Positions 36,403 through 52,898 of a stretch of DNA of 64,000 nucleotides are shown here, one piece after another (within the stretch, counting starts at the first letter, position 1; each line of letters starts with the position of its first letter). The position numbers and the translations under genes were made by a program. The notes under the pieces are model-generated. The model had not been told where the DNA came from and ran no database searches. It worked only from the letters and a program-made list of their open reading frames with translations. The stretch is from Bacteroidota bacterium. GTDB taxonomy: Bacteria; Bacteroidota; Bacteroidia; J057; JAJTIE01. The stretch lies in the NCBI GenBank assembly GCA_019638695.1, contig JAHBTG010000004.1, positions 3,233 through 67,232 of the forward strand, read 5' to 3'.

Positions 36403-39400
36403 TTAGCGAATAAGGGTAACAGTGCCTTCGTAAAAAATAGGTTCACCTGTGATGCGAATAATCTTGGCCTTGTAGGTATAGGTGCCCGGGTCAAACGGCT
36501 TTCCGGTATCAGTGTTGCCATCCCAACCATCGCGTGCATCGGTTTCAAAAACTTGGTTTCCCCAACGGTCGAAGATACGAATATATTCTACGCGGGGATT
36601 AGCATTCACCGGCACAGGACGAAAACGGTCATTTACACCATCTCCGTTGGGAGTAAAAGCCGTAGGAAAGAAATATTCTTCTTCCTTAATCTCCACATAA
36701 TCTGTAAGGATCAGGAGATCCTGGCATTCCTGGCCAGAACCATCGTCCTGCAGTTCTCTGACCAGCTGAATGACGGTGTATTTACCCGGACGGGTATAAC
36801 GGATCTGGGGATTCAATACATCCGTCTGGATATTCCGCGGGTTCAGAGTATCTCCAAAATACCAGAAGATACTGACAGAATCTCCAGGAGTGCGTGTATA
36901 AGTACTCACAAACTGGATGGAAGGCTCCAGGATGGAAGTTACCGGCAAAGGCGCTACACCGGGAGGCAATGGATTCGTATCCGAACCGCCCAAGGCCGCC
37001 TCACGGGCTTTGGGATAAGCATAAAACCCGGACTGCGGAGGATTAGAGGCCCAGACGGTATCTTCTATTAATGAAGTACAACCGGTATTGGGGTTAAAAC
37101 ACTCCAGCACATACACATGAAACCCATAGTTATTGACCGGGAAAGTTACGGTATCCGCATTAGGGAACTGGCTGGGGTTCACTATCCAATACTGGCTACG
37201 CAGGGCGGGCGGTGTAGCCAGGAGATTGGCCAGCGTGGTACGGTACCACACTCTGTTGACGCATTCCGGTATCGGCGGAGAAGAGATGAAATAATCATCA
37301 AACAGCCCGCAAAGATCCGGCGCATTCAGGGTGGGTAAGGTTGTGGGCAATACCGTCACGGTATATTGGGTGGTATTGCGGCATCCATTGGCAGTAGTAG
37401 CGGTTACCACATAAGTCGTGGTCATCAGAGGCCTCACGACCGGATTAACGGGATCAGTCACATCAAAGGGTTGCGGAGTCCAGGCGACATTGGTGAAGGT
37501 ACCCGCAGGGAACTGAGAGAGGGATAAAGTCACGGGATCTCCGGGGCAGATATCGGTAACCACAGAAGGGGTAATCGACATCAGGTTACCCGGCTGCACA
37601 TTGATGAGAATAGTATCCAGGAAAGTACAATTACTGGTGGGTTCAAAAATAAGCACGTCATACCGGCGCGTTACCAGGGGTATGGCACGTATACTGTTGG
37701 CAGTAATGAACTGGAAATCCGAACCCACCCAATTATACTGGGTACCTCCCATGGCGGTAATCACCACAGTATCTCCCAGGCAGATGGTAATATCCTTGGA
37801 TGCAGGCGTAACAATACCTGCAGGCAATAACCCTTTCACAAAGACTGTTTGCGGATAATCCACCGAATCCCCGGGGCAATCTGCCGTACCCACCCGCCAG
37901 GTAATGACCACATCCTGGTTAGCATCTGCCGCTACGGACTGGTAGCTGGCATTGGCATTTATATTATTGGGATGGAAAGTACCTCCTCCGGAAGTATACC
38001 ACCGCCCTGAACCCACTGTAGCAAAGGCATTCAGCGGACCAGTGGAAGAATTGGTACAGATCGTATCCGGCGCATCTGTAAAGCCGCCATGTGGGATAGG
38101 GAACTTGGGCATGACACGGCAATAATCTACGCTATCGCAGACCCCATTGCCCACACGCCAGCACAGGAAAACAGGCACAGTTTCATCTGCAGGCACACTC
38201 AGGTACTGTGCATTGGGGTTATTGATACCTCCCACAAATGAGCCAAAGCCGGTAGTTGTCCAGCGCCCACCTCCACTATAAGTTTCTGCACTCAAAGGGA
38301 TTGTCAGATCTCCCAGGCATACAGTGGAAATGACCGTATTCATAGCCCCATCGGGCAAGGTATCCACCTGGAGAAAACGGGAATAGGAAACCGGGGGACA
38401 GGTGCCATTCTGCACGGTCCATACCAGTTCTACGGTTTGTCCGCCATCAGAAGAAACTGAGATATAGCGGGAATTTCCATCTGAAGTGGGTGTAGTGAAA
38501 CCGCCATGGCAGTTGTTACAGCTCCAGGAACCCACTCCGACATTGGCCACAGCGCCCAGCGGGATGCTGGCCTGCCCGGCACAGATAGTAGGAAGTACCG
38601 TAGCAAAAACACCATCAGAAGGCTCAAACACCTGGACATTCTGTGTATAAGTCACCACAGGGCAGGCATTCTTGACCACATTCCACTCCAGGGTCACAAT
38701 GTTGCCGCCATCTCCCAGCAAACTTTGATACTGCGCATTAGGCGCATTGCTATTTGGGATAAAGCTACCGACACAATTAGAACAACTCCAGTAACCGGTT
38801 CCTTCAAAGGCCTGACCGATCAGGGGTATGGTCACATCTCCCGCACAGATATTCCCGGGGTTGCTGGAGAACGCCCCCAATGGGGTCTTGGAGATATACA
38901 GCTTACGGTCAAAATTAAGGTCGGCACATAACCCGCGCGATACCGTCCACGTCAGGGTAACCGAGTCTATCCCATTACCCACAGCGCTCAAATGCACATA
39001 ACGGGCATTAGGATCATTAGGAGCAGGGTTGCCCGCCGCATCTACAAATAAGCCCGTGCCGCTGCTGGACCAGGTACCAATAGCCGGTGGCACCGCCGGA
39101 GAGGGAGGAGCGAATGTGGCATTGAGGGGCACAGTAGTATCACCCTCGCAAATGGTGTCCGGGGCAAACGCAGCAAAGCTGCCCGTCAGCGAAACGTTCA
39201 GAGCTTCAACTACACGCAGGTTTGTATCTTCTACACAGGTAGGGCCATTATTCACTATCCAGTAGAGATTGATAAAATGACCCGCATCTGCCACATCGCT
39301 CAGGTAATAGGCATTGGGATCATTGGGAGTGGGGTTTCCGTGTATATCCACAAAAGCCCCCAGGCCATTATCCGTTTCCCAGCGGCCCGTGCCCACCAGG

Positions 39401-42400
39401 ACAATAGCATTCAGCTGGGCAGAATAGCCTCCTGCACAGAACGGAGGGATATTGGTAGTAAAAGCACCTACCGGGGGCTGCACCACATTGACATACTGGC
39501 GTTGAGTATCGGGCGGACAATTTGTACTTTGGGTGATCCATCTGAGTTCAACAGTAGAAGCCGCATCCCCCGGCCCGGGAATATACCGGGTAGAAGTTCC
39601 GGTAGGATTTGAGAAGACCCCTGTACCATTGGAACGCCAGTGCCCTGTAGTACCCGGAGCAGCCGTGGCAGAAAACACATCCGTCTGGGAACCGGCCAGG
39701 AAGCAGACATCCGGCGGACCGGCTGCAAATACCCCGGCAGGCCGGCAGGAAACCGTCAGATTCTGCTGAAACACACCGGGAGGGCATCCGCCGGTAGTCA
39801 CCTCCCATCGCAGGACGGTGGTACCGCAATAGCCGGGATTAGGTGTAAAGGTAGCATTGGGGTCCAGCGGGTCAGAAAAAGCACCATTGGCATTCGCCAG
39901 CCACACGCCGGTATTGCCGGGGCCGGCATAAGCCCCCAACGGAGCCGTAATCCCCCCCTGGCAAATGGTAGTGGGTGCCGTGGCAAAGCTGCCATCTACC
40001 ACACTATTATTGACAAAGAAGGATTGCGTAGTCGTCACGCACCCGCAACCCGGCTCGCAGACCCGCCACTGCAGGACAATGACCTGGTTGGCATCTGCCA
40101 GCACAGAAGTATAGAACGCATTGGGGTCCGAAGGATCCGAGATCGCACCCTGGCCCGTATAAGCGCTGCCATTGGGCAGCAGGCTCCACGTGCCGGTACC
40201 CACAGTACCCACCACGTTAAAGGGGGTGGTAGAAGAACCACTGCAGATATCGGCAATGGGGTCTATAGTACCTGCTACAGGCGTTTGGCCCACATCCAGC
40301 ACATGGATAATCGTATCGGGGTCACAAGGACTATTCTGGACAATCCAGGCGATGGTTACCTGTTCGGCTACACCCGGCACCGGTGTGTAGCTGGCGCTGT
40401 CATTCAGCGGATTATCAAAGAACGTTCCGGCATGCGGGCCCAATACTTCAAAATGTCCCCGGCCAAATACCCGGATACCGAAGAAACGGGCAGGAGTAGG
40501 ACTGGTAGAACAAATGGGTGTTAAGGGGCCTACAAAGTAGCCAAGCGGCTGGCGATTGACCCGAATCATATTCTCCAGGACAAGCGGCGTACAAGCCCCC
40601 TGGGTCACTGTATAGGTAAGGGTAATATCCAGGCCGGCATCTGCCAATACAGACTGATAGTAGAAATCAGGACCTATCTGCACGATACTGCCCCCGCCAT
40701 TATGCGAATAAGCTCCGGTACCTACATAAGCAACCCCGCCGAGAGGACCTACCAGGTCTTCTGCACATACCGTATCCGGCGTAATCGGGGGGAAAGCCCC
40801 GTCTACCACAGGAACCAGCACATTCAGCGTCTGCTGGTACACCGCAGGGGCACATACGCCATTGGTGACCGTCCAGATAAGATCTACTGTACTCCCCGAG
40901 TTACTGGGGTGCGTAATATACCGGGCGTTAGGGGTAGTGTTATTGGGAGTAAAATACCCCAGCGAGCCCACACTGGGCACAGCAGTCCACACTCCCGTAC
41001 CCCTGATGGCAGTTGCTCCCAGGTGACCGGTAGAGCCGCCCGCGCACACATCCGAAGGGGTGGAGGCAAACGTACCCAAAGACGGCGCATAAATATAGAC
41101 CTGGCGCTCCAAGACTATGGGCGTACAGGTACCGGAAGTAATCACATAGTAGAAGGTAACCAGTGCCTCCCCAGTACCCATATCCGTAAAGGTAGCATTG
41201 GGGGCATTCAAACTGGGCAAAAAGATACCCGGGCGGGAGGTTGTCCAGAATCCGGTACCAGTCACCAGCGTCGCACCCAATGGGGCCGAAACGCCAGCCT
41301 GGCACATCAGCACCGTATCTGCGGGCATACTACCCGAGGGCAAACCGGCGTGCTGCACAAATTGCACGTCCCCGCTATCTACACGACAGCCTTCGGTAAT
41401 AAGCACACGGTAATAAGCAGAAGCCGCCAGCGAAGGGATCGTATAGATGGGGGAAGTCTCACTGGCAATATCCGACCAGGTTATGGCATCAGGGGAAACC
41501 TGCCATTGCAGGGACGCAGACGTGCCTGTATAGGTCAGGACAGGGCTGGTTCCGGTGCAAAAGATGCCCGCACCGGAGGTAATGCCGCGATCCGGGGCCA
41601 CGGTCACATCCACAAACACCACGTCAGAAGTATCCACACAGGTAAATCCTGCAGTGCTCACCACCAGGGCATAATAAGTGGGCGCCACCAAAGGTTCGGT
41701 ATACAATACAGGAGAGCTGTTAAAGCCCACACCCGTACTCACATGCGTCCAGGGTCCTGTAACGGAGGGACCGCTAATCCAGTATAACGTATCTCCCAGG
41801 AAACTTCCCACATAGACCACGGCAGATTCTCCCGTGCAGACACTGGTATCCGCACTGGCAGGCCCGGCAATCGCATTACACAGGTTCAGGAACACCAGCA
41901 ACGTATCATCCTGGAAACAACCGGTAACCGGGTTGGTAAGCCGGACCACCACCGTATCCGTAAGTGACGGATCACTCAGTGCAGAAGTAAAGTCAATGGC
42001 GGGAGATACAGCCGTGGGATTGGAAATCCCTGCTGCGGAGCCATTGCGGGTCCATGAAATATCCATTCCTGCTGCATTGGCCACAGAATAAGGCTGGGCC
42101 AGCGCCGGGATCACCAGCAGCTGCGGGCCGGAGGCTACGGGAACTGGCAGGGGATTGACCGTAAGGGTTAACACATTGGCAGCCGTATCCGAACAGCCAT
42201 TCGCGGTGGTGGCAATTACCGTATAGTTACCCTGGATATTGGTTACCAGGCTCACCCCGGTTTCACCCGGAATGGGAAAATTATTGCGCAACCATTGGTA
42301 ACCCGTATAGGTGGCATCAGAGGCCGTAAGTGTAACCGTGGCGTCTTCGCAAATGGTCAAAGGATCTGTGGTGGTTACCGTAAAAGCAGGCAGGCTATGC

Positions 42401-43965
42401 ACGGTGATAGGGAAGTTTTGCAAACATCCGCCGCCATAATCCACGGTGACCACATCCACCAGGTCTGCCCCAGAGGCATTCATACCCGGGATAAAAAAAG
42501 CACTGCTGCCCGGGCTGCCGATAATACTGGCTCCGCTCAGGTTAGTGGAAATACTCCAGTTACTGGCCGCAATCCCCGTATTCAACAAAACAGCCCCACC
42601 GTCGGGACAGGCGGTATTAGCTCCTGTTATGGGATTATTAGGGTATACGGTAATCAGCAGTGTATCCGCGCAGGTAGCACTTGTTGCAATGAGCGTATCC
42701 ACCCGAACACTGAGTGGCAGGCCAAAAGTCACCTGGGTAATCAACGCGGGATTACCGCCCGTAACCCCGGAGGGTGTGCCCCCCACCCCGGAAAGAATCG
42801 TCCATGTAGGTGGCACAGAACCCGCCACTTCATACTGGACAATAGAATCTCCGCAAACCTGCAGTGCCGGTGTCACAAACTCTGGCCGCTCCTGCACCTG
42901 CACAAATATCGTATCCGTCCGGCCACAAGGGAACGGACTGGTCAACACAATGGTATCCAGCTGGCCTGCAAGCGTATTAGGGAAAACCACATCGATAAAA
43001 GGTGTACCCGTGGTAAACGGACTGACGATTGCACCCCCATTCAGCACCTGCCAGTCAGCAGGGCCGCTTGCCACCAAACGGACAGGCAATTCTGCACATA
43101 CCGGCTGCGGAGCCACAGCGGTAGTTAGATCAAAAGGAGGTAAAGCGCTTACCAACGACACAGGAGTCACAGAAAAGACCACCGTATCGCGGCAGCTTCC
43201 TAGTGAAAAGATGAGCGTATCATTGGCAGGCACCAGTGCATTGCCCAGGTCCACATACACGGTATCCGTACTCAGCGGATTACCGGTCAGCGCATCAAAA
43301 GCAGTACCATGCGGACTAATAATGCTCCAGCTGCCTACGGCATTCCCCCAAAGCTTCAGCACAGGTTCGTCTGCACAGAAGGCAAAGTTACCGCTAGGAT
43401 TGGTGATCCGTGCACCCGCCAGGGCAGGCAATGGCGGAACAAACACAGCCTGAGGCTTGATGTCATTTGAAGCGTAATCCAGGATAACCCCGGAGTTCAC
43501 ACGCCAGCTAATGTGGCTGGCCCTGTTGCAGTCCTTCTGGATAATGAATATGCGGGCCACCCGGGTGCGGGTAGCCGTCACATTAATACCAGGCCCGGCA
43601 TTGGTGGGGACCACACTCAGGTTAAGAAAATTAAAAGTACCGCCAATCTCCAGAGGGAAATAAGAGTCGGGAGGCGCCACACCCGACCAAGGGCCTGCGA
43701 CAAGAATCCCTTTATCGGAAATATCGAGCAAACTGGTATCAATGTTAATGACAAAGTTTGCGGCACCCAGCGCAAAATCAGGACCGGATGCCTTCTGAAT
43801 ATAGACATCCAGGAACAGCGTATCTGCCCCGCCTTTAACCTGCTCTACTTCCAGCCTGTAATCCTGTGCATAGAGCCGCGGCCCTGCAAGTCCACTCATA
43901 AACCATATGCCCAGCAATAAGAGCCAAGGGGCAAACCAGCTTAACCTGAGAGGGAAACGCAACAT
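36403..43965 (-). CDS. giant secreted protein (2520 aa): cohesin-like N-module, >=13 Cys-containing Ig-like repeats, PKD-like region, T9SS type B C-terminal domain
   Basis: Start placed at the ATG at 43965 (MLRFPLRLSWFAPWLLLLGIWFMSGLAGPRLYA signal peptide). The track start at 44052 adds a non-signal extension. C-terminus FPTAFTPNGDGVNDRFRPV...IRIFDRWGNQVFET...GWDGN...PGTYTYKAKI matches the type B CTD. The N-module is homologous to those of the 756-aa and 1485-aa neighbours. Confidence 0.9.
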   Translation of the reverse strand: MLRFPLRLSWFAPWLLLLGIWFMSGLAGPRLYAQDYRLEVEQVKGGADTLFLDVYIQKASGPDFALGAANFVINIDTSLLDISDKGILVAGPWSGVAPPDSYFPLEIGGTFNFLNLSVVPTNAGPGINVTATRTRVARIFIIQKDCNRASHISWRVNSGVILDYASNDIKPQAVFVPPLPALAGARITNPSGNFAFCADEPVLKLWGNAVGSWSIISPHGTAFDALTGNPLSTDTVYVDLGNALVPANDTLIFSLGSCRDTVVFSVTPVSLVSALPPFDLTTAVAPQPVCAELPVRLVASGPADWQVLNGGAIVSPFTTGTPFIDVVFPNTLAGQLDTIVLTSPFPCGRTDTIFVQVQERPEFVTPALQVCGDSIVQYEVAGSVPPTWTILSGVGGTPSGVTGGNPALITQVTFGLPLSVRVDTLIATSATCADTLLITVYPNNPITGANTACPDGGAVLLNTGIAASNWSISTNLSGASIIGSPGSSAFFIPGMNASGADLVDVVTVDYGGGCLQNFPITVHSLPAFTVTTTDPLTICEDATVTLTASDATYTGYQWLRNNFPIPGETGVSLVTNIQGNYTVIATTANGCSDTAANVLTLTVNPLPVPVASGPQLLVIPALAQPYSVANAAGMDISWTRNGSAAGISNPTAVSPAIDFTSALSDPSLTDTVVVRLTNPVTGCFQDDTLLVFLNLCNAIAGPASADTSVCTGESAVVYVGSFLGDTLYWISGPSVTGPWTHVSTGVGFNSSPVLYTEPLVAPTYYALVVSTAGFTCVDTSDVVFVDVTVAPDRGITSGAGIFCTGTSPVLTYTGTSASLQWQVSPDAITWSDIASETSPIYTIPSLAASAYYRVLITEGCRVDSGDVQFVQHAGLPSGSMPADTVLMCQAGVSAPLGATLVTGTGFWTTSRPGIFLPSLNAPNATFTDMGTGEALVTFYYVITSGTCTPIVLERQVYIYAPSLGTFASTPSDVCAGGSTGHLGATAIRGTGVWTAVPSVGSLGYFTPNNTTPNARYITHPSNSGSTVDLIWTVTNGVCAPAVYQQTLNVLVPVVDGAFPPITPDTVCAEDLVGPLGGVAYVGTGAYSHNGGGSIVQIGPDFYYQSVLADAGLDITLTYTVTQGACTPLVLENMIRVNRQPLGYFVGPLTPICSTSPTPARFFGIRVFGRGHFEVLGPHAGTFFDNPLNDSASYTPVPGVAEQVTIAWIVQNSPCDPDTIIHVLDVGQTPVAGTIDPIADICSGSSTTPFNVVGTVGTGTWSLLPNGSAYTGQGAISDPSDPNAFYTSVLADANQVIVLQWRVCEPGCGCVTTTQSFFVNNSVVDGSFATAPTTICQGGITAPLGAYAGPGNTGVWLANANGAFSDPLDPNATFTPNPGYCGTTVLRWEVTTGGCPPGVFQQNLTVSCRPAGVFAAGPPDVCFLAGSQTDVFSATAAPGTTGHWRSNGTGVFSNPTGTSTRYIPGPGDAASTVELRWITQSTNCPPDTQRQYVNVVQPPVGAFTTNIPPFCAGGYSAQLNAIVLVGTGRWETDNGLGAFVDIHGNPTPNDPNAYYLSDVADAGHFINLYWIVNNGPTCVEDTNLRVVEALNVSLTGSFAAFAPDTICEGDTTVPLNATFAPPSPAVPPAIGTWSSSGTGLFVDAAGNPAPNDPNARYVHLSAVGNGIDSVTLTWTVSRGLCADLNFDRKLYISKTPLGAFSSNPGNICAGDVTIPLIGQAFEGTGYWSCSNCVGSFIPNSNAPNAQYQSLLGDGGNIVTLEWNVVKNACPVVTYTQNVQVFEPSDGVFATVLPTICAGQASIPLGAVANVGVGSWSCNNCHGGFTTPTSDGNSRYISVSSDGGQTVELVWTVQNGTCPPVSYSRFLQVDTLPDGAMNTVISTVCLGDLTIPLSAETYSGGGRWTTTGFGSFVGGINNPNAQYLSVPADETVPVFLCWRVGNGVCDSVDYCRVMPKFPIPHGGFTDAPDTICTNSSTGPLNAFATVGSGRWYTSGGGTFHPNNINANASYQSVAADANQDVVITWRVGTADCPGDSVDYPQTVFVKGLLPAGIVTPASKDITICLGDTVVITAMGGTQYNWVGSDFQFITANSIRAIPLVTRRYDVLIFEPTSNCTFLDTILINVQPGNLMSITPSVVTDICPGDPVTLSLSQFPAGTFTNVAWTPQPFDVTDPVNPVVRPLMTTTYVVTATTANGCRNTTQYTVTVLPTTLPTLNAPDLCGLFDDYFISSPPIPECVNRVWYRTTLANLLATPPALRSQYWIVNPSQFPNADTVTFPVNNYGFHVYVLECFNPNTGCTSLIEDTVWASNPPQSGFYAYPKAREAALGGSDTNPLPPGVAPLPVTSILEPSIQFVSTYTRTPGDSVSIFWYFGDTLNPRNIQTDVLNPQIRYTRPGKYTVIQLVRELQDDGSGQECQDLLILTDYVEIKEEEYFFPTAFTPNGDGVNDRFRPVPVNANPRVEYIRIFDRWGNQVFETDARDGWDGNTDTGKPFDPGTYTYKAKIIRITGEPIFYEGTVTLIR
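37850..41400 (-). repeat. array of >=13 coding repeats of about 91-95 aa (C...PL.A....GTG.W....G.F.....PNA.Y.S...D.G..V.L.W.V..G.C)
   Basis: I found 13 clear occurrences of the (P/A)NAxY / xxSRY core in register (NAPNATF, TPNARY, DPNAFY, DPNATF, TSTRY, DPNAYY, DPNARY, APNAQY, GNSRY, NPNAQY, ANASY, ...). Boundaries are approximate. Confidence 0.7.
43432..43863 (-). other. cohesin-like N-terminal module, copy in the 2520-aa protein (aa 35-178)
   Basis: DYRLEVEQVKGGADTLFLDVYIQKASGPDFALGAANFVINID...TATRTRVARIFI...ISWRV. Clearly alignable with 50348-50863 and more distantly with 48044-48550. The fold assignment is inference from the pattern only. Confidence 0.5.
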
Positions 43966-44053: not shown

Positions 44054-44094
44054 AAGGCAATGGAGTAGAGCTTTTTACTCTACTCCATTGCCTT
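44054..44094 (-). terminator. intrinsic terminator after the 1485-aa gene
   Basis: 17-bp perfect stem AAGGCAATGGAGTAGAG / CTCTACTCCATTGCCTT with a 7-nt loop. On the minus strand it is followed by TTTTTGGTTTGTTTTTT. It lies 59 nt downstream of the stop at 44153. Confidence 0.8.
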
Positions 44095-44152
44095 AATTTT
44101 CCCCATACGGTATCAGCATGTACTTCCAGACTAACTTTTGAGTGTTCAAAAA

Positions 44153-47100
44153 TTAGGGATTAGGCACACTGGTAATCCGCAGGTCATTGTTATTGGTTCT
44201 GACAATCGTCACATCAAAAGCGTTCAGATCACCATCCAGTGACGCATCGGTTTGTGTGTACACATTAGAGGGGTTGCTTATAGCAGCCACGCGGGTGCGG
44301 AAAAAGTCTGCGGCATTCACCTCTCCTACATCATTAAACACAGCATTGTCATAGACGTTGCCCGCCAGCATCGCATACACAACATAGGCCGGGGCTGCGT
44401 TCCTATTGATAATGGCCACTGCAGGCGTCAGACCGGGATCCTGGTAGTAGTTCGCAGGGTTATTGAATGACCAGCTGCTGGGCACCACGCTATTCAGGGG
44501 TACGGCTACACTGGACATGATGGGCAGGTGGTTTTTATGACGCACCACGATATAGTAGTTGCCATCAGGATTGCCATCGCAGAAGTTTACAGCAGGGTTA
44601 GTTGCCGTAGCAAAATCACGCACACTACCGTCTGCCATCAGCCACGCATAGGCGGAATCAATAGCGGGCCCTGTGGCGGAAGAACGAATCTCCAGCTTGA
44701 GCACATCCACCGCATCTATAGGCAGGGACGCCATAACGGTATTGCTATCAGCAGGCTGTACAAACCCGGTAGGATCCAGTGCGGGGCTGCCATCTCCAAA
44801 GACATCCGTCAGCAGCGTATACGTACTGTTCAGCAGCGCAAAGTTCATCGGCACCGAACCAGTAGTGTCTATACAACCTTCCATAAAGACGGTAAGCTCC
44901 ACACCCAGGCCGGTCGTTCTATTAATGACAACCGTATTGGCCATATCCTCTGTACAAGTGAAAGGAACGGTTCTTTGACCTGTAACGGTCACCGTAATAT
45001 TGCCGGATGCCGGGAACAGCGTCAATGGCAGCATCAGTACAGAGCCGTTACCAGGCGTAGAACTGGACAGCGGAGTGATTCCGTCAAAAGCGGTGTAGGA
45101 TACTCCGGCATCAGATGCCAGTATGCGAATGACAGGAGTATCGGTTCCGCAGAAGGAGGTATCCCCTTCCACTGTTTTGAGATCTACCCGGTTACTGGTG
45201 ATGACCAGGGTATCATACGTTACGCAGAAACCATCTGAAACCGACCACATCAGGCTATCGGGAGTGCCGGGCACAGAAGTGGTAGTAAAGAGAGAGTTCG
45301 GATCAGAAGGATCGGTCACTGTGAAGCCGGCTGTAATGGGCACCCAGGTACCTATATAAGGGCTGGTCACAGGCGTGGCATTCAGGGTGGTGTTGTCAGT
45401 ACAAATGTTCTGGTCGGCGCCGGCAGCAGCTACGGCAAAGTTCAGGGTCACATCATCCGAATGTGCCACAGAACAGCCGGGACCAGGGGCAGTTGTCTGC
45501 CAGCGGAAGACGTAGGTACCGGGCACATCAACCGTCACGGCTGTATTATAGGTGGAGTTGCCAGGGTTATAAGTGGGTGAGCCGGGGCCACTGACAAATA
45601 ACCAGTTGGCAGAGACTCCTAGCTGAGTCAAGGCATCCGAACCCTCAAGGGTAACAGAAAGACCGCAGATATTGGAATCAGGTCCTGCTGACACATAGTT
45701 AAACACAACGGTCACGTCATCAAACGGATGCGACACGCAGCCTAACGGCAAAGTACCGGTACTCTGCCAGCGCAAGGTATAGCTACCGGGAGTATCTACG
45801 GTAATCACAGAAGTAGGCGCAGTATCATTGGAGAATACAGGAGCTCCGCTGCCACCAGGGCTGGCAATTACAGACCACTGACCGCCGGAAGCACCGATGA
45901 TCGTGGGATCGAATCCTGCCAATCCAGCGGTGTTGGCATCACAAAGCACCAGGTCCGGTCCTGCCGTCACAAAGTTGAAGGTGATATCCACACTATCTAC
46001 AGGCGTACAAGCTCCCACCACGTTACCGGTCCAGTAGAAACGATAGGTACCGGGCACATCAACCGTTACACCTGAAACGGGACTGCTGGCATCAGTAAAG
46101 GTAGCGGTACCAAGACCTGAAACCTGACTCCAGGTACCAATGGTAACAGGTGCTATCAGCGCGGGGGCATCCATGATATACGTGGAATCGCAGACGGTCA
46201 TGGGTGAAGTACCCGCTTCTATGAAGGCAAAAGTTACTTCTATACTATCTTGGGCAGAACAAGCACCCATAGTAGCGCTCCAGTAGAACTTATAGGTACC
46301 GGCAATACTGACACTTACCGTGCTGGTTTCTGAGCCGGGAGTAGCGATGGTCGCCACACCAGGATTGCCTACAGCTGCGCTCCATACACCGCCGGTGACG
46401 GCAGTAGCGTCAAAGGTATAAGTGCTGTCATTACAGACTGCCACGGGAGTAGTACCGGCTTCTACAAAAGCAAAGGTTACTTCTACACTGTCCTGCACAG
46501 AGCAGGCACCTACAGTAGCACTCCAGTAGAACTTATACACACCGGGAGTATTGACACTCACGGTGCTAGTTTCCGAGCCGGGAGTAGCGATGGTCGCCAC
46601 ACCAGGATTGCTTACAGCTGCGCTCCATGCACCGCCTGTCAAAGGCTCGGCATCGAACGTGTAGGTACTGTCATTACAAACTGCTGCAGGGGTAGTACCT
46701 GCCTCAGCAAAGGCAAAGGTCACTTCTACGCTGTCCTGGGCAGAACAAGCACCTATAGTAGCGCTCCAGTAGAACTTATACACACCGGGAGTATTGACAC
46801 TCACCGTGCTGATTTCCGAGCCGGGAGTAGCAATGGTCGCCACACCGGGGTTGCCTACGGCTGCGCTCCATACACCGCCGGTGACGGCTGTAGCGTCAAA
46901 GGTATAGGTGCTGTCGTTGCAGACTGTTACAGGCGTAGTACCGGCTTCTACAAAAGCGAAATCAATCTCTACACTATCCTGGACAATACCGCAAGGTACG
47001 CCTGCATTGTACCCCCAGTAAAACTTATAGAGACCGGGCGTATTGACACTCACGGTGCTATTATACAGGTTCACATCTGTGATAGTGGCCACACCGGGGT

Positions 47101-48610
47101 TACCTACTGCTGCGCTCCATACACCGCCGGTGACGGCAGCAGCTTCAAAGGTATAGGTACTGTCGTTGCAGACTGCTATAGGAGAGGTGCCGGCTTCTGC
47201 AAAATGGAAGGTTACCAGCAGGCTATCCTGAACAAGGCCGCAGCTGCCTACTGTGGCATCCGTTCTCCAGTACAGTTTATAAGTACCCGGGATAAGCGCT
47301 CTAGCCACAGAGGTCGGAGAAGCCGGGGTGTCAAAGCTGACGTTTATGGGGTCTTCAGCAACCCATATGCCACCGACGCCTAATGACACAGCCACCGGAT
47401 CTGCATAGAGTATAAGGGAATCGGCCCCACAGACCACGGAATCTCCACCGGCTTCGGTAAATACAAAGGTCAGGTCCACACTGTCTACCAATGACAGCGG
47501 AGGATCTGCCGTCCAGTAGGCACCATACGTACCGGCCGGGAAGCCCGGAGCCACACTTACAGAAGAAGTAGGACTAGTGGACGCAGCAAATAACAGGCTG
47601 CCAGGAGGATTTGAAGACCATGTTCCGGGAGAAACTACTATTGTGGAAGACGCATCCAGCAAAGTATAGGGACCAGCGCTACCACAAAGGGTATCATTGA
47701 TCAACGGAAAATCAATGGCCCAGAGCTGGGAAGTCACTACAACCGTATCTGTGTATACGCAACCATTGGCGGTTACGGTATATGACCATACCAGAGTATC
47801 GGCCAAGCCTCCGGCACCCAGGTTCCTGACGATGGAAGTAGGTGAAGAAGGTGTATCAAAAGTAGCCGTACTGGCACCGTGTGCACTCCATAATCCGGTC
47901 TCGCCGGTCATCAGCGGTTCGGCATAAAGCTCGAGCGTATCCACATAAATGGTGGAATCTATACCTGCGCTACGTTCCAAACGGGTAGAAAGCGGGGCAT
48001 CTGAGGTGCGGGCAACCGTAACGACAATAGGTGTTGAAATGGTCTGATGGATCAAAAAAACAGGATTCCCGAAACCGTCATCATCCCAGGAACCGATGGT
48101 ACCGGCAATCACAAACTGCGGGTTAATGTCCACTTCGCAATAAGGAGTTGCTGCAGCCCTGGCGTATATCGTACCAATCTTGACGGTATCATTCAGCAGG
48201 AACTGGTTGGGAGTGGGAATGGTGCCCGGAGAAGGGTACACATAGCTCTTGATAAACCGGACGATCAGGCGCCGGGAGAGTGAACTGACGCTCAGCACCA
48301 TGGGTTCATAGGGAACCGCGGGGTTAAACTCCCAGTCTGAAGTACCATTAAGGCGAGAGCCGGTGGTATCGACCAGCCTCGCACCCACACCATTACTGAT
48401 GGCAGCCCAGTCTGCAACGGTGAATTCAATGGGAATATCACCACTACCGATTTCAAGCGGCGTGGCCTGTTTGTTGATAATGAAGATATCAAACAAGAGC
48501 GAATCTGCGCCACCGCGGCGCTTCTCCATTCTTATCTCGTAGTTATATGATTGGGCAAACACATTAGCGCCCAATAATATGAACAGCATAGCGACGAGTA
48601 TCCTTTTCAA
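44153..48610 (-). CDS. giant secreted protein (1485 aa): cohesin-like N-module, many Ig-like repeats, dockerin-like C-module, no recognisable T9SS CTD
   Basis: TTG start at 48610 (plus strand ...tccttttcaa), giving the signal peptide MKRILVAMLFILLGANVFAQ. The repeated AGxxxxVCxxSTYxxxA...GGxWS...GxxTxxxxxSxTSxVSVxxPGxYKFYW module fills most of the protein. The last 250 aa are homologous to the C-terminus of the 646-aa protein. Confidence 0.88.
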   Translation of the reverse strand: MKRILVAMLFILLGANVFAQSYNYEIRMEKRRGGADSLLFDIFIINKQATPLEIGSGDIPIEFTVADWAAISNGVGARLVDTTGSRLNGTSDWEFNPAVPYEPMVLSVSSLSRRLIVRFIKSYVYPSPGTIPTPNQFLLNDTVKIGTIYARAAATPYCEVDINPQFVIAGTIGSWDDDGFGNPVFLIHQTISTPIVVTVARTSDAPLSTRLERSAGIDSTIYVDTLELYAEPLMTGETGLWSAHGASTATFDTPSSPTSIVRNLGAGGLADTLVWSYTVTANGCVYTDTVVVTSQLWAIDFPLINDTLCGSAGPYTLLDASSTIVVSPGTWSSNPPGSLLFAASTSPTSSVSVAPGFPAGTYGAYWTADPPLSLVDSVDLTFVFTEAGGDSVVCGADSLILYADPVAVSLGVGGIWVAEDPINVSFDTPASPTSVARALIPGTYKLYWRTDATVGSCGLVQDSLLVTFHFAEAGTSPIAVCNDSTYTFEAAAVTGGVWSAAVGNPGVATITDVNLYNSTVSVNTPGLYKFYWGYNAGVPCGIVQDSVEIDFAFVEAGTTPVTVCNDSTYTFDATAVTGGVWSAAVGNPGVATIATPGSEISTVSVNTPGVYKFYWSATIGACSAQDSVEVTFAFAEAGTTPAAVCNDSTYTFDAEPLTGGAWSAAVSNPGVATIATPGSETSTVSVNTPGVYKFYWSATVGACSVQDSVEVTFAFVEAGTTPVAVCNDSTYTFDATAVTGGVWSAAVGNPGVATIATPGSETSTVSVSIAGTYKFYWSATMGACSAQDSIEVTFAFIEAGTSPMTVCDSTYIMDAPALIAPVTIGTWSQVSGLGTATFTDASSPVSGVTVDVPGTYRFYWTGNVVGACTPVDSVDITFNFVTAGPDLVLCDANTAGLAGFDPTIIGASGGQWSVIASPGGSGAPVFSNDTAPTSVITVDTPGSYTLRWQSTGTLPLGCVSHPFDDVTVVFNYVSAGPDSNICGLSVTLEGSDALTQLGVSANWLFVSGPGSPTYNPGNSTYNTAVTVDVPGTYVFRWQTTAPGPGCSVAHSDDVTLNFAVAAAGADQNICTDNTTLNATPVTSPYIGTWVPITAGFTVTDPSDPNSLFTTTSVPGTPDSLMWSVSDGFCVTYDTLVITSNRVDLKTVEGDTSFCGTDTPVIRILASDAGVSYTAFDGITPLSSSTPGNGSVLMLPLTLFPASGNITVTVTGQRTVPFTCTEDMANTVVINRTTGLGVELTVFMEGCIDTTGSVPMNFALLNSTYTLLTDVFGDGSPALDPTGFVQPADSNTVMASLPIDAVDVLKLEIRSSATGPAIDSAYAWLMADGSVRDFATATNPAVNFCDGNPDGNYYIVVRHKNHLPIMSSVAVPLNSVVPSSWSFNNPANYYQDPGLTPAVAIINRNAAPAYVVYAMLAGNVYDNAVFNDVGEVNAADFFRTRVAAISNPSNVYTQTDASLDGDLNAFDVTIVRTNNNDLRITSVPNP
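44156..44905 (-). other. shared C-terminal module with dockerin-like tandem Ca-loop motifs, copy in the 1485-aa protein
   Basis: FMEG...VDVLKLEIR...AYAWLMADGSV...YYIVVRHKNHLPIMS...AGNVYDNAVFNDVGEVNAADFFRTRV...TDASLDGDLNAFDVTIVRTNNNDLRITSVPNP(stop). The second loop DASLDGDLNAFD fits the EF-hand/dockerin DxxxDGxxNxxD pattern. Confidence 0.5.
46200..47210 (-). repeat. four near-identical tandem coding repeats (period about 243-249 nt) inside the 1485-aa gene
   Basis: For example, the 37-nt string GAGCCGGGAGTAGCGATGGTCGCCACACCAGGATTGC occurs at 46332 and again at 46575 (243 nt apart). The protein units (E)AGTTPV(T/A)VCNDSTYTFDATAVTGGVWSAAVGNPGVATIATPGSE(I/T)STVSVNTPGVYKFYWSAT(I/V)GACS(A/V)QDSVEVTFAF are almost identical. 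Confidence 0.85.
48044..48550 (-). other. cohesin-like N-terminal module, copy in the 1485-aa protein (aa 21-189)
   Basis: SYNYEIRMEKRRGGADSLLFDIFIINKQATPLEIGSGDIPIEFTV...DTVKIGTIYA. This is the most divergent of the three copies. Confidence 0.4.
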
Positions 48611-48673: not shown

Positions 48674-50944
48674 TTAGCGCTCCAGTTCAATCAGTTTGCG
48701 GGTTGCCGTAACGTCATTGACACGCAGCACCACAGTGTAGGTACCAGCGCTTACCGATTGGAGACGAGACCCAAACTCATAGGTATAGGTACCTGCAGGC
48801 AGCGTACCGTCCTGCAGAGCCGCCACACGGGCGCCCAGGAGGTTGTAGACTTCCAGCGTGATCTCAGCAGACCTATCCAGTGTAAGATAGAGTCCGGTTT
48901 TACCCACAAACGGGTTAGGATAAGCCTGGAATCCAACGCCCTCGGCAGCCAGATCGCGGTTGGTGAGGCTCACCACCACAAAGTCTGAGGTAGCGGCGCC
49001 GCAATCATTAGTAGCCGTCACCGTGTAATTGCCGGATTGTGTAGCCACCAGCATGTTGGTATTGGCGCCATCGATCAGAATACCGTTATGGAACCATTGG
49101 AGATTGCCCGGGGCATTCGTAGTCAGCAGGTTATCCGTTGCCTGAATAACCGGCTGAACAGGTTGAGGGGTGATCTGTACGGTAATAGCGGTAGAACGCT
49201 CTGAGATACAGTTGCCATCCTTGCTGGATGCACGATAGATACCTTCTTCTGTAACCAGGAGCTCACTGTCCGTATTCGTCATGATATTACCGTTCTGGTA
49301 CCATACATGTGTACCGGTAACGCTGGAAGAAAGCATGAGGTTTTCGTTCTCGCACACTTCTACAACACCGTTACTTACAGTGCGGCTGGCAGAAACTTCG
49401 GGAGCGGCCACACTGCGCTCGGCAATGACAGCCGCATTAGAGGTAGAGGAAGCGCATCCGCCGTCCATCATCACAGCAGTATAGGTACCGGGCTGGGTAG
49501 CTACAAAATCAGCACCTGCGCCATTGATGGACTGGCCGTTGCGATACCAGGCATGCACACCCGTCCGGTTACTGCTAATGGTAATTTGCTCGCCCTGGCA
49601 GATCTCGCTTGCGGCAGCCGCAATTTCAGGTGTCTCCAGCACAGCAGTGCGGATAGTAATGGTGGCAGGCTGGGTGTTGCAATCTGTAATGGCCTCGGCA
49701 CGGTATACACCGGGCTGAGCCACTATGAGCTGGGTACCGCTGGACTGCACCAGGCTATTATCCTGGTACCAGCGGTGGTTGCCCGAAAAGTCGGAGGTAA
49801 TGGTTACCGTCTGTCCGGAGCAAATCACACCCGCTGACGAAGCAGACAGGTTGGGATTCACATTATCTACGATGCTAACCGTAACCGGATCTGAAGCCGT
49901 AGACTGACAGTTGCCGTTCACACTCACCACAGTGTACGTACCGGCCTGGTTGGCCACCAACTGGTTACCTGACCCTGTAATAACCTGGCCGTTGCGATAC
50001 CAGATGTGCGTACCTGATTTGTTAGAATTGAGCGTAACCGAAGAAGAAGCGCAGATCTGAGTGGCGCCGGCAGCAGAAAGTTCCGGAGTCTCTGCGGTGC
50101 TGTAAGCGAGGTCCACCATCTGAGAGACCTCGGAACGGCAGGAGTAGAACATCGATACCGCAGTATAGGTACCGGGCTGGGTAGTTACCAGCTCATTTTC
50201 AGAGGCGCTGGGGATCAGCTCGCCATTGCGGTACCATTCATGAGGACCGGCATAGTTCGAAGTAAGTTCAAAGCTCTCACCCGGGCAAACAGCAGTGCCG
50301 CCAGAAGCCAGCTGAGGCACGGCAGGCTTGTAACACAGCGGAAAATCGGGTGCAGGGTTCACGTAATCGCCATTGGATTTGATATCAGAGTAGATGTACT
50401 CTGTGATCATATTACCGGAGCCGGGATTAAAAGGATCTTCTACCGTGCGGGTCTCCCATTTCATCACAGCAGTAGGAGCCACCCGCCATGTGGTGGTCGT
50501 AAACCCGCTATGATCGGTTACGGGGATCACCAAACGCCCCACACGGGTGCGGGTAGAAGTGACCATAGCACCCAATGTCTTGTCATCAGGGGTTTTATGC
50601 AACGTATTCAGTACCACGTAGTTAGTCCCGTTACCTTTGGAAAGGGACTCATAATGAGCGGGCATGGTCTGCACATGCCAGGGCCCGCTCTTGGTAAAGT
50701 CAATAGAAGTGGAAGGCAGATTGAGATAATTCTGATTGACAAAGAGGGAGAAGTTGCAGGCAGCCAGTGCAAAGTCCGGCCCGCTGGTTTTCTGGATATA
50801 GATATCTACATTCAGTTTTCCTGGCTCAACAGACTGCTCCACTTCCATGCGGAAGAACTTGTTTTGAGCAAAAACCTGATTGAGCGCCAGCAGGCAGCAA
50901 AGTGCCGTGAGCAAAGCAAATGAGGCGATACGTTTGCGCAACAT
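48674..50944 (-). CDS. secreted protein (756 aa): cohesin-like N-module, six Ig-like C..W(Y/F)xNG repeats, T9SS type A C-terminal sorting domain
   Basis: Start placed at the ATG at 50944 (MLRKRIASFALLTALCCLLALNQVFAQ), 13 nt after the upstream stop; an alternative ATG at 50974 overlaps the upstream gene. There are six repeats such as TQICASSSVTLNSNKSGTHIWYRNGQVITGSGNQLVANQAGTYTVVSVNGNCQSTAS. C-terminus YPNPFVGKTGLYLTL...LEVYNLLGARVAAL...GTYTVVLRVNDVTATRKLIELER matches the type A CTD. Confidence 0.88.
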   Translation of the reverse strand: MLRKRIASFALLTALCCLLALNQVFAQNKFFRMEVEQSVEPGKLNVDIYIQKTSGPDFALAACNFSLFVNQNYLNLPSTSIDFTKSGPWHVQTMPAHYESLSKGNGTNYVVLNTLHKTPDDKTLGAMVTSTRTRVGRLVIPVTDHSGFTTTTWRVAPTAVMKWETRTVEDPFNPGSGNMITEYIYSDIKSNGDYVNPAPDFPLCYKPAVPQLASGGTAVCPGESFELTSNYAGPHEWYRNGELIPSASENELVTTQPGTYTAVSMFYSCRSEVSQMVDLAYSTAETPELSAAGATQICASSSVTLNSNKSGTHIWYRNGQVITGSGNQLVANQAGTYTVVSVNGNCQSTASDPVTVSIVDNVNPNLSASSAGVICSGQTVTITSDFSGNHRWYQDNSLVQSSGTQLIVAQPGVYRAEAITDCNTQPATITIRTAVLETPEIAAAASEICQGEQITISSNRTGVHAWYRNGQSINGAGADFVATQPGTYTAVMMDGGCASSTSNAAVIAERSVAAPEVSASRTVSNGVVEVCENENLMLSSSVTGTHVWYQNGNIMTNTDSELLVTEEGIYRASSKDGNCISERSTAITVQITPQPVQPVIQATDNLLTTNAPGNLQWFHNGILIDGANTNMLVATQSGNYTVTATNDCGAATSDFVVVSLTNRDLAAEGVGFQAYPNPFVGKTGLYLTLDRSAEITLEVYNLLGARVAALQDGTLPAGTYTYEFGSRLQSVSAGTYTVVLRVNDVTATRKLIELER
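50348..50863 (-). other. cohesin-like N-terminal module, copy in the 756-aa protein (aa 28-199)
   Basis: NKFFRMEVEQSVEPGKLNVDIYIQKTSGPDFALAACNFSLFVNQ...TSTRTRVGRLVI...TTWRV. Closely alignable with 43432-43863. Confidence 0.5.
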
Positions 50945-50957
50945 ATAGTTAGTGGGA

Positions 50958-52898
50958 TTAATTCTTAGGTGCATTGGAAATACGCAGTTGGCGAGAGTTG
51001 AAGCTGGTGATAGTCATGTCGCTGCTATTGGAATAGCCATCGAAGCGGACATCGATCTGCTGGTAGATCTGGTCTCCTGCAAGCAGGTTGTTAGCCACCC
51101 GCTGGCGGAAGAAGTCGGCAGAGTTCACCTCATCTTCATCATTAAAGATCAGGTTATCATACACGTTGCCACCTATCATGGCATAAGCCCCGGGATTCAC
51201 AAATACCAGGTTATTGTTAGCAACATTGCCCAGCACGGACAAGTCCAGAGATACCGGCGTAGTACTCAAGGTATGGGCGCTTGCGGTAATAATGGAGATG
51301 TGGTTACGGTGGCGCACAACCACGTTGTAGCTACCGGCGCCTACTCCGCAAAACATAAGGTGATTCCCTCCTGCATTACCGGAGAAGAACGGCTGCACAC
51401 TGCCATCAGACATTACCCAGGCGTAGCAGGTATCCAGCTTGGCGGTAGGCGGATTGGGCCAGAGCTCTACTTTGATGACGTCCACCGCACCGGCAGGAAC
51501 GGCCACGTCACGATACATCTTGGGAACCGGCTGGCCGTTATACAAGGCAACCGGGCTCGTTTCGGAGTACATACTGTCCAGCAAACTGGAATAGCTGGTA
51601 GTGCTGATCTTGTTAAGCGTATCGGACATATCTCCCTCAACCGTACGATACGCACCTTCCAGGTACACCTTTATATCCAGCCGGACACTTTCATTGACTG
51701 TGACAAGCACACTGGAACTGGTATCTCCCAAACAACCCGTGTTGGAGATCGTCCGTAAGGCAAAGTGAGTGGGCGTAGGCTGCCCGGGTATAATACCGGG
51801 GCTATAGAACACGTCAGAAGTCTGGCCAGGCACGTCTGCCCAGGTAGAACCGCCGTCCGCGCTGAGAATCCACTGCAAGTCGGCAGTGGGATCATATCCG
51901 GTAGCTTCCAGGCGAATAGTATCCACCTCGCAAATGCTAGAAGCAGAGATAACTGCCGCCGTACCCGCAGGGGAAGCGCATGCCCCAAAGGCGTAATAAC
52001 CCAACTGAATAGGGTTGAAGGCATTGTTCACTCCTATATAATAAGGAGGGGAACCATTCTGATAGAAATCATTCCCCATGGAACCATATGGCTGCACACC
52101 ATCCGGACTATACACGATATGCGTAGAAGGAATCTGCGCAGGAGAGATGCCGGAGGAAAACTTAAGTTCTATATCCCCCGCATCGTTATAGGTACCTCCG
52201 AAAGCAGAGATCCGCCAGTGGTGGTCCGGAAATACGAGGCCCACCCCAGGACCGGGGTTATTGAGCGGGGGAGTAGCCAATGCTTCGGCCTGCACAAAAG
52301 TGCCTGCATCCGCCACAATAGAACCAAAGTTAATCTTCTTGGCCTCGGTAGCCGTACCCACAGGAAGAACTAATGAAGTATTATCTACATTAATGGCCAC
52401 AGGGCCAACCACCCAGCCATTGGCACCCAGGTCAATCGAAGGAGATACGGGTATTGTTCTGTCAAAAATGAGAAGATCCGAAGCGCTGCCATTGGTATAG
52501 ATCATGGCTTCCGGAGCATCCAGGGAAGAAAATACGCTCAGGGTATCCTGTACATGGAGAGAAGCCGTAGCAGGAGACTCCAGCACAAGGTATCCTACCG
52601 TGTCATGACCAGCAGCTTTATATAACAGATTGCCGGCACCGGTAAATCGTACGGCCACCTCATCCTCTGTATTGTGGCTAAGCCGCCCGTCATTACTAAG
52701 TGTATCGGCCAGGTACAGGCTGCCTTGCAGGAGCAGCTCGCCCCCGGTGGCTATCCCCACATTACCCGTTACATACACCTGTTCCCCATTGCGCACGGAA
52801 AGTACTCCTCCATTACCTACATGCAGGCGTGTCTGCCCCCATACCTGAAACGGGAGCAGCAAAACAGCAAGTAAGGAACCGTGAAGTAGTAGTCTCAT
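50958..52898 (-). CDS. secreted protein (646 aa) ending in the dockerin-like C-module, no recognisable T9SS CTD
   Basis: Signal peptide MRLLLHGSLLAVLLLPFQVWGQ; ATG at 52898 verified. The last 242 aa are homologous to the C-terminus of the 1485-aa protein. Confidence 0.85.
   Translation of the reverse strand: MRLLLHGSLLAVLLLPFQVWGQTRLHVGNGGVLSVRNGEQVYVTGNVGIATGGELLLQGSLYLADTLSNDGRLSHNTEDEVAVRFTGAGNLLYKAAGHDTVGYLVLESPATASLHVQDTLSVFSSLDAPEAMIYTNGSASDLLIFDRTIPVSPSIDLGANGWVVGPVAINVDNTSLVLPVGTATEAKKINFGSIVADAGTFVQAEALATPPLNNPGPGVGLVFPDHHWRISAFGGTYNDAGDIELKFSSGISPAQIPSTHIVYSPDGVQPYGSMGNDFYQNGSPPYYIGVNNAFNPIQLGYYAFGACASPAGTAAVISASSICEVDTIRLEATGYDPTADLQWILSADGGSTWADVPGQTSDVFYSPGIIPGQPTPTHFALRTISNTGCLGDTSSSVLVTVNESVRLDIKVYLEGAYRTVEGDMSDTLNKISTTSYSSLLDSMYSETSPVALYNGQPVPKMYRDVAVPAGAVDVIKVELWPNPPTAKLDTCYAWVMSDGSVQPFFSGNAGGNHLMFCGVGAGSYNVVVRHRNHISIITASAHTLSTTPVSLDLSVLGNVANNNLVFVNPGAYAMIGGNVYDNLIFNDEDEVNSADFFRQRVANNLLAGDQIYQQIDVRFDGYSNSSDMTITSFNSRQLRISNAPKN
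50961..51686 (-). other. shared C-terminal module with dockerin-like motifs, copy in the 646-aa protein
   Basis: KVYLEG...VDVIKVELW...CYAWVMSDGSV...YNVVVRHRNHISIIT...GGNVYDNLIFNDEDEVNSADFFRQRV...IDVRFDGYSNSSDMTITSFNSRQLRISNAPKN(stop). Confidence 0.5.

Follow-up and report, generated by a model that had tools for sequence, protein, structure and literature searches.

Five genes on the minus strand of a 64-kb stretch of DNA from a metagenome-assembled 'Bacteroidota bacterium' (the whole stretch is called the window below, and the genes A to E) probably encode a non-cellulosomal assembly system of the cohesin-dockerin type, situated on the surface of a bacterium which bears a type IX secretion system (T9SS). 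Four of these genes (A–D) specify large secreted proteins which share two terminal modules: an N-terminal one of ~160 amino acids (aa), here termed the N-module, and a C-terminal one of ~250 aa, the C-module. The fifth specifies an outer-membrane protein of the PorP/SprF family. The N-module is predicted to have the fold of cohesins and the C-module that of the X-module-plus-dockerin (X-Doc) dyads of cellulosomes. A first-pass annotation of the window, made without database searches, had read the block as a scaffold of cohesin-dockerin logic. That interpretation is supported by both fold checks and by the co-occurrence of the modules in other genomes, and the binding itself is something which we infer.

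Protein A shares its C-module with protein C (32.5% identity over 329 aa, E 4e-34), and protein B its N-module with protein D (32% identity over 224 aa, E 9e-20), as judged by BLASTP. Module copies within the window share just 32–37% identity, and no extra copy of either module was found elsewhere in the 64 kb. The type A sorting domain ascribed at first pass to B, the type B domain ascribed to D and the PorP/SprF neighbour of the latter were all confirmed by Pfam and NCBIfam, TIGR04183 scoring 33 bits in B against a cut-off of 23 and TIGR04131 scoring 45.3 bits in D against a cut-off of 35. A and C gave no Pfam or NCBIfam match of any kind, sorting domains included, which bears out the claim that these two proteins carry a Sec signal and no T9SS C-terminal domain. 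Type I signal peptides could be read from the translations of all five proteins, none of which is a lipoprotein (0/5).

The AlphaFold2 model of the C-module of A is single-domain-like [pLDDT 94.5, pTM 0.91] and consists of a ~170-aa beta-sandwich (strands at residues 10–179), followed by helices at residues 198–208 and 230–241 after two loops. The top nine Foldseek matches in the PDB were all X-Doc or type II dockerin dyads (4u3s_B, 4wi0_B, 5k39_B, 2b59_B), aligned over 162–252 columns with a target TM of up to 0.68 (4wi0_B); the tenth match had an E value of 0.056. Sequence comparison led to the same proteins. A profile of 45 C-modules matched almost exclusively dockerins among the PDB sequences [5k39_B, 2.4e-6; the X-Doc of CipA, 2b59_B, 1.4e-5], with 3kcp, 5g5d, 4wi0, 5lxv_B, 4fl4_A and 2vn5_B among its lower dockerin matches, and a separate profile of 72 full-length members likewise matched little but dockerins in the PDB [3.5e-6]. 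The hidden Markov model (HMM) alignments to 5k39_B and 2b59_B begin in the last strand of the X-module. Pfam Dockerin_1 (PF00404) was matched by 12 of the 45 members [best E 2.4e-11]; taken alone, the copies of the window fall below the Pfam dockerin thresholds and give weak matches to PDB dockerins [0.02–0.2]. The second loop follows the family consensus D-x-N/D-x-D-G-x-V-N-x-x-D, its first Asp being present in 44/45 and its twelfth-position Asp in 45/45 members. It is canonical in protein C (D-A-S-L-D-G-D-L-N-A-F-D), and reads D-V-R-F-D-G-Y-S-N-S-S-D in protein A, with Arg in position 3.

Compared with solved T9SS sorting domains by Foldseek, and searched in Pfam and NCBIfam, the C-module gave no match. 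The dockerin-like character given to it at first pass is supported: on the evidence of the model and the family profile the C-module is best described as an X-dockerin-like dyad, with a tail homologous to dockerins, and is distinct from known T9SS sorting domains. In 53 of the 56 homologs aligned at full coverage it forms the very end of the protein, on the C-terminal side. Its sandwich contains the conserved motifs AVDV, YAW(L/V)M-DG (YAWLM-DG-IRDF) and VVRHRNHL; in the last of these N137 and H138 are invariant among the 45 homologs and H135 and R136 occur in at least 90% of them. Conservation of this kind far exceeds what one would expect of a spacer; the residues could form a metal site or a contact surface, or serve as a signal for recognition.

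For the N-module of B an all-beta sandwich of ~10 strands was modelled [pLDDT 93.1, pTM 0.86] from an alignment 27 sequences deep. Ranks 1–39 of the Foldseek search against the PDB were all cohesins [E 9.6e-6 to 2e-3, probability 1.00, target TM 0.45–0.63]. They include type I (4ums, 2ccl, 1ohz, 1anu) and type II (3fnk, 5k39_A, 2b59_A) representatives, the R. flavefaciens structures 5lxv and 4uyp and a cohesin-like module of C. perfringens, and span types I–III. The model superposes on solved cohesins as a jelly-roll beta-sandwich, in agreement with the cohesin-like sandwich proposed at first pass. Target TM values of 0.45–0.63 would mark the N-module as a distant relative or an analogue of cohesins: its predicted fold is that of a cohesin, and the kinship appears at the level of the fold. 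A match of the N-module profile to the C-terminus of a baculovirus sulfhydryl oxidase [1e-3] was rejected as spurious, since it covers a short helical region and contradicts the all-beta model; it was absent when larger N-module profiles were used.

Relatives and gene linkage outside the window

A chimeric N+C alignment, used as the query of an exhaustive HMM search (representatives of clusters at 50% identity, E up to 1e-3), returned 5022 representative proteins. Among the best 150 of these, 120 have only the C-module, 17 only the N-module, and 13 an N-terminal N-module together with a C-terminal C-module; because the longer C-module dominates the chimeric scores, these figures do not estimate abundance. 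An independent profile, built from B-like N-modules only, confirmed full N-modules in eight of these N+C proteins, among them an 870-aa one with four N-modules in tandem; proteins with a full N-module and a C-module thus exist outside the window. The homologs whose source is named belong to Roseivirga, Saprospiraceae, Bacteroidales, Rhodothermales and Ignavibacteriota and are annotated only as 'hypothetical protein' or by their sorting domain. Word-indexed homolog searches with the single modules, and an exact look-up of gene A, gave no relatives. Since genes B and C do occur in the larger library, the single-module nulls reflect search sensitivity and not rarity. Scans of genome contigs for N-module and C-module patterns gave no confirmed relative.

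The division of sorting domains seen in the window recurs among these homologs. Por_Secre_tail is present in 13 and CHU_C in one of 16 N-only proteins (14/16 with a sorting domain), and Por_Secre_tail in seven of the eight tested N-module proteins encoded downstream of C-module genes. Neither domain was found in any C-module homolog, whether N+C (0/12) or C-only (0/72; 0/84 together).

A scan of metagenomes was seeded with 68 aa of conserved C-module core, and loci were thus recruited from the C-module side only; there were 212 relatives, and 80 loci (650 kb in total) were retained. Of the 28 N-modules within them, 24 come immediately after a C-module gene on the same strand, the N-module domain beginning 66–211 nucleotides (nt) past the end of the preceding C-module open reading frame (ORF). 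The neighbourhoods of individual homologs were retrieved as well. One of these (L001) is syntenic with the window: it holds a C-module gene, an ortholog of D (P0075, 55% identical to D over its full length), and PorP/SprF, PAS-SpoIIE and SUKH genes. In another (L002) a C-module protein of >2859 aa is followed by a 316-aa protein with an N-module and Por_Secre_tail, and then by P0008 (870 aa, 9817–12429; ENA ERZ25039515 contig_103520), which carries four tandem N-modules and a C-module; the arrangement amounts to a complete layout of primary scaffoldin and anchoring scaffoldin. In L004 (GCA_020627945.1) a C-only protein of 550 aa precedes an N+LamG+C protein of 1866 aa and a protein which starts with an N-module. 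Among the loci from the metagenome scan, L006 and L017 reproduce the window block minus gene C: a C-only protein, an N-module protein of ~440 aa, one of ~1900–2100 aa, and PorP/SprF. The adjacency of a type B cargo to PorP/SprF is found in L001, L006 and L017 as well. Lastly P0128, a 376-aa protein from a Joint Genome Institute (JGI) metagenome, has a Pfam Cohesin domain [8e-8] at its N-terminus, in the N-module's place, and a C-module with a very canonical duplicated dockerin. The two modules, which the first-pass annotation had expected to travel together, are thus found in other genomes side by side, whether within one protein or in neighbouring genes.

Tandem arrays of two to four C-module paralogs were also observed in 18 of the 80 loci (for example L022, L031, L033, L037 and L073), and C- and N-module genes sometimes alternate (L022, L073). 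Such tandem or alternating arrays suggest local expansion of ligand/receptor pairs.

As to cargo, the N-terminal ~340-aa domain of A (region aa 1–395, 51714–52898) is what the X-dockerin module carries most often. It represents a conserved family (28 of the best 150 representatives align over >250 positions), with homologs in P0024 and in P0003, P0005, P0014 and P0026, the last four being homologous to gene A over its full length, and it gave no Pfam or PDB sequence match. Other C-module homologs carry LamG, FG-GAP, fn3 and cadherin-like domains and, occasionally or rarely, S8 peptidase and PPC domains. The earlier remark that no glycoside hydrolase (GH) or carbohydrate-binding module (CBM) could be recognised in the block was confirmed by a Pfam scan of the four window proteins; the 72 C-only homologs include one CBM9 and no GH.

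Proposed assembly and its alternatives

We propose that B and D are receptor proteins, similar to anchoring scaffoldins, in which a long stalk of immunoglobulin (Ig)-like repeats ends in a cohesin-fold module. The T9SS would export them, and they would be attached to the outer membrane, B through its type A domain and D through its type B domain together with the product of gene E, the presumed cognate anchor or shuttle for that domain. Type A cargo becomes linked to anionic lipopolysaccharide, and a PorP-like protein retains cargo of type B (PMC9143113). A and C would be the ligand proteins; their X-dockerin-like C-termini, with one canonical and one half-degenerate Ca2+ loop, would plug into the cohesin-fold modules, presumably in a Ca2+-dependent manner and with some specificity of pairing, and A and C would then be located on the surface. 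The core unit would be an X-dockerin gene followed by a cohesin-sorting-domain gene, as in A and B with their 13-nt gap, and this adjacency suggests that A binds B. Protein C may serve as an adaptor that links or lengthens the assembly, provided that its divergent head is still able to bind a dockerin. Because the cargo is non-enzymatic, adhesin-like display or surface architecture would appear a likelier role than polysaccharide degradation.

Several observations weigh against this proposal. We infer the binding of C-modules by N-modules from genomic linkage and not from a modelled complex, and it is this linkage which suggests that the N-module binds dockerins, as cohesins do through their 8-3-6-5 sheet. 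Pfam Cohesin (PF00963) gave no match to the N-modules of the window at E values up to 10, and was weakly matched by only two of 35 N-module members [0.047 and 0.0057]. The N-module profiles matched no cohesin among the PDB sequences. When three cohesins of CipA, their sequences taken from PDB alignments, were compared with the N-module by hhalign the equivalent strands were aligned without reaching significance (probability 4–7%, P 0.005–0.009), and the alignment of the N-module profile with the Pfam-positive cohesin of P0128 was not significant either. Convergence on the jelly-roll sandwich is therefore a possible origin of the likeness. Of the two EF-hand or dockerin-like loops described at first pass, the second is canonical across the family and the first is half-degenerate, both in the family and in the two window copies, positions 7–12 being kept (E-V-N-x-x-D) and positions 1–5 variable or gapped. 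Likewise the combinatorial module pattern held for the C-module in A and C and for the N-module in B and D, and only in part for the N-module in C. The N-termini of C and D gave a BLASTP match of 62 aa, signal peptide included [2e-5]; a jackhmmer search from the mature N-terminus of C reached the N-module family over the first ~55 residues only, with the GGAD-L-FD-I strand pair, and an N-module profile built without protein C failed to detect it. The N-module of C is thus, from its sequence, only partly recognisable. An N-module gene lies directly after only 21 of the 83 C-module genes with enough downstream sequence, about three quarters lacking it. Finally A and C, with Sec signals and with neither a sorting domain nor a lipobox, have no known route across the outer membrane, and they could be periplasmic.

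Some of these points would suit the notion that the two modules bind external ligands independently of each other, the N-module as a carbohydrate- or protein-binding tip and the C-module as a Ca2+-dependent lectin-like or structural tail of separate adhesins which share an operon. Sequence methods do not tie the N-module to cohesins; cohesin-like folds serve elsewhere, as in the C. perfringens modules and the CLIPPER adhesin domain found among the lower Foldseek matches; three quarters of the C-module genes stand without an adjacent N-module gene; and the cargo (FG-GAP, LamG, fn3, cadherin-like) is of an adhesin type. One would not, however, expect independent binders to show the non-random order of C-module gene and N-module gene which applies to 24 of 28 N-modules, nor scaffoldin-like proteins with four tandem N-modules and a C-module, nor a strict partition of sorting domains onto the N-module proteins. 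The best structural matches of the two modules are, moreover, the two partners of one type of complex, type II cohesin and X-dockerin, and on balance we consider independent binding unlikely. A different reading would make the C-module a third kind of C-terminal sorting or export signal, for the T9SS or another outer-membrane system, with the N-module as an unrelated distal tip and the shared operons reflecting one surface structure. The position of the C-module at the extreme C-terminus fits this idea, although dockerins too are usually C-terminal, and so does its occurrence in Sec-signal proteins of T9SS-bearing Bacteroidota, Ignavibacteriota and Rhodothermales. Its failure ever to occur together with Por_Secre_tail or CHU_C would be expected equally if the C-module docks onto a partner which has the sorting domain. 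The invariant HRNH-type motif would be needless in a passive spacer, and A and C are otherwise left without an export route. Yet the C-module bears no resemblance to T9SS sorting domains in Pfam, NCBIfam or Foldseek, its tail is a dockerin homolog by both profile and fold, and an export signal leaves unexplained why the partner gene directly downstream should start with a cohesin fold. We regard this reading as decidedly improbable.

It is scarcely credible that the shared termini are a by-product of local duplication or domain shuffling among giant surface proteins, without functional coupling. The window does contain other giant T9SS proteins (4408–9999 and 10439–18481) and the repeats inside C and D show active duplication; however, at 32–37% identity the duplications that gave rise to the module copies would be old, and the combinatorial pattern recurs in unrelated contigs and phyla, which contradicts such an origin.

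If the cohesin-dockerin assembly is accepted, A and C might leave the periplasm by riding on their partners. An X-dockerin protein would bind the downstream-encoded sorting-domain protein in the periplasm, and the folded heterodimer would be exported by the T9SS on one signal. We put this forward as a speculation, more doubtful than probable; it would explain both the conserved succession of C-module gene and N-module gene and why C-module proteins lack sorting domains. In the literature searched, hitchhiking of this kind on the T9SS was not reported. The two-gene cassette offers a simple genetic handle on the surface export of proteins without a T9SS sorting domain. If the modules do bind in the manner of cohesin and dockerin, many unannotated surface proteins of Bacteroidota, Ignavibacteriota and Rhodothermales could be read as modular self-assembling structures, and the cohesin-dockerin principle would extend to diderm T9SS bacteria with non-enzymatic cargo. 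The system would then be a source of orthogonal cohesin-dockerin pairs with which to build surface displays in Bacteroidota, and would justify a new profile for a family of cohesins which present models overlook.

Organisation and surroundings of the block

The layout described at first pass (four large genes, their gaps, the terminator after gene C, the -7 box upstream and the PorP/SprF gene behind D) is all present in the sequence (Table 1). Besides the 13 nt between A and B, the intergenic gaps are 63 nt (B–C), 187 nt (C–D) and 6 nt (D–E).

Table 1. Genes, modules, sorting domains and control elements of the block, in window coordinates
Feature	Position	Strand	Remarks
Gene A	50958..52898	-	646 aa (ORF call): Sec signal peptide, ~340-aa N-terminal domain, Ig-like linker, C-module
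Gene B	48674..50944	-	756 aa: an N-module behind the signal peptide, then Ig-like repeats and a T9SS type A sorting domain
Gene C	44153..48610	-	1485 aa from a TTG start: behind the signal peptide a head that is N-module-like but divergent, then Ig-like repeats and the C-module
Gene D	36403..43965	-	2520 aa from Met30 of a 2549-aa ORF (36403-44052): signal peptide, N-module, repeats, T9SS type B sorting domain
Gene E	35371..36396	-	341 aa, PorP/SprF-family outer-membrane protein (TIGR03519 7.5e-41; PF11751 2.2e-35)
C-module of A, 'X'-like beta-sandwich part	51171..51713	-	aa ~396-576
C-module of A, dockerin-like part	50961..51170	-	aa ~577-646; two loop-helix segments
C-module of C	44156..44935	-	X-like sandwich (44366-44935) and dockerin-like tail
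N-module of B	50330..50866	-	predicted cohesin-fold beta-sandwich; aa 37-215 of the 766-aa ORF
N-module of D	43408..43872	-	predicted cohesin-fold family; independent profile match E 5e-52
N-terminal region of C	48011..48553	-	aa 20-200; kinship with the N-module family demonstrable over the first ~55 residues only (YNYEIRMEKRRGGADSLLFDIFI...)
T9SS type A sorting domain of B	48689..48922	-	aa 685-762; TIGR04183 4.3e-8, Por_Secre_tail 8.6e-5
T9SS type B sorting domain of D	36406..36669	-	TIGR04131 7.4e-12, CHU_C 1.1e-12
Intrinsic-terminator-like hairpin between C and D	44054..44094	-	18-bp stem and T-run
TAtaTTTG, candidate Bacteroidota -7-type promoter element	52942..52949	-	44 nt before the start codon of A, read from sequence

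Gene B also exists as a longer ORF of 766 aa (48674–50974) which overlaps the end of gene A, the 756-aa form starting at the second Met. The latter start is that of the identical NCBI entry MBX3101161.1, annotated 'T9SS type A sorting domain-containing protein'. Gene C corresponds to the 'hypothetical protein' MBX3101160.1 (locus tag KF690_01490), which starts seven codons later. That start is an internal Met (1478 aa, MLFILLG...; region 48590–48610) and deprives the signal peptide of a charged n-region; a start at the TTG looks more plausible, because MKRILVAMLF... gives a normal signal peptide. Gene C carries ~10 copies of an Ig-like unit of ~85 aa, and gene D Ig-like units and 13 copies of a ~95-aa repeat.

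The PorP/SprF gene is followed by genes for a PAS-SpoIIE (PP2C phosphatase) membrane protein and a SUKH/SMI1-KNR4 protein, both in the window (33223–35341) and in L001 (10546–12627); the two may form a conserved pair, with a role in regulation or immunity, that is associated with the block. Directly upstream of the block lies a gene (53043–57785, minus strand) for a 1580-aa protein with an nSTAND1 NTPase, a transmembrane/coiled-coil region, WD40 propellers and a C-terminal LysM, separated from the block by a strong, bidirectional-looking terminator (52993–53030). Elsewhere in the window, 10439–18481 (plus strand) encodes a 2680-aa SprB-repeat protein with PKD, P_proprotein, GBD_T9SS_assoc and a type B domain [CHU_C, 1e-19]; in contrast to gene D, it has no PorP/SprF gene beside it and is followed by a thiolase gene. 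The 1863-aa protein of 4408–9999 (minus strand) has a T9SS type A domain as its only recognisable feature, and neither an N- nor a C-module. The window also holds a dcw cluster, which, like the T9SS cargo proteins and the SprB-repeat protein, is in keeping with a Bacteroidota source.

Relation to known systems

The best matches of both models belong to the type II cohesin/X-module-dockerin complexes by which cellulosomes are anchored, namely the X-Doc of CipA with SdbA, OlpB and Orf2p in C. thermocellum and that of ScaA with ScaB in Acetivibrio cellulolyticus (2b59, 4u3s, 4wi0, 5k39). As in those systems there is a C-terminal dyad of sandwich and dockerin on one side and, on the other, a receptor module of ~150–170 aa, here with a predicted cohesin fold, on a cell-anchored protein. 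The proteins with both modules, one of them with four tandem cohesin-fold modules, likewise recall the hierarchical logic of scaffoldins. The tandem placing of the scaffoldin-like genes is also seen in the sca clusters of cellulosomes. The differences are considerable. The hosts are diderm members of the Fibrobacteres-Chlorobi-Bacteroidetes (FCB) group whereas those of clostridial cellulosomes are Firmicutes, and the anchors are T9SS type A and type B domains with PorP/SprF in place of SLH domains or sortase. The N-module is missed by Pfam Cohesin, loop 1 of the dockerin is degenerate, and the X-like sandwich is larger (~180 aa) than that of cellulosomal X-Docs and has the invariant HRNH motif. 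Glycoside hydrolases and CBM3 are missing, most of the cargo being without an assigned function, and since GHs and CBMs are absent the system is not a cellulosome.

Cohesin and dockerin modules outside cellulolytic organisms were reportedly surveyed by Peer et al. in 2009, who are said to have met them frequently on proteins without a known function and, in some cases, both within a single protein. That survey reportedly used modules recognisable from their sequence, and the N-module described here escapes such models. To our knowledge neither the T9SS wiring nor the conserved gene pair formed part of it.

The closest precedent found is in Cloacimonadota, where metagenome-assembled genomes of 'Ca. 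Stygibacter' were inferred, from their genes, to encode a cohesin scaffoldin with a T9SS-type C-terminal domain together with dockerin-bearing proteins (PMC8542988). These too are diderm FCB-group bacteria, whose signal-peptide proteins end in dockerins and have no stated route across the outer membrane (PMC8542988). Their cohesins and dockerins are canonical ones recognised by InterProScan, the dockerin enzymes include GH18, GH57 and S8 and C25 peptidases, and CBMs are carried by the scaffoldin; an X-Doc dyad, a conserved succession of dockerin and cohesin genes and a unit of type B domain and PorP are not described for them (PMC8542988). The suggestion made at first pass, that no system of this layout had been described, therefore holds for Bacteroidota, in which the literature searched describes no T9SS cohesin-dockerin system, and has to be qualified by this partial precedent. 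As a T9SS cohesin scaffoldin had already been inferred in Cloacimonadota, the general idea is not new. The adjacency of gene D and its PorP/SprF gene also follows a known arrangement, that of SprB/SprF in F. johnsoniae and PG1035-PorP in P. gingivalis (PMC9143113, PMC12618676), although neither an N-terminal cohesin-fold module nor recruitment of a dockerin partner has been reported for known type B cargos. What is new is a large unannotated family of the FCB group with a module of predicted cohesin fold which is invisible to current profiles, an X-dockerin dyad with a motif of its own, the conserved cassette of X-Doc gene and cohesin-sorting-domain gene, the reliance on type A as well as type B/PorP anchors, and the non-enzymatic cargo.

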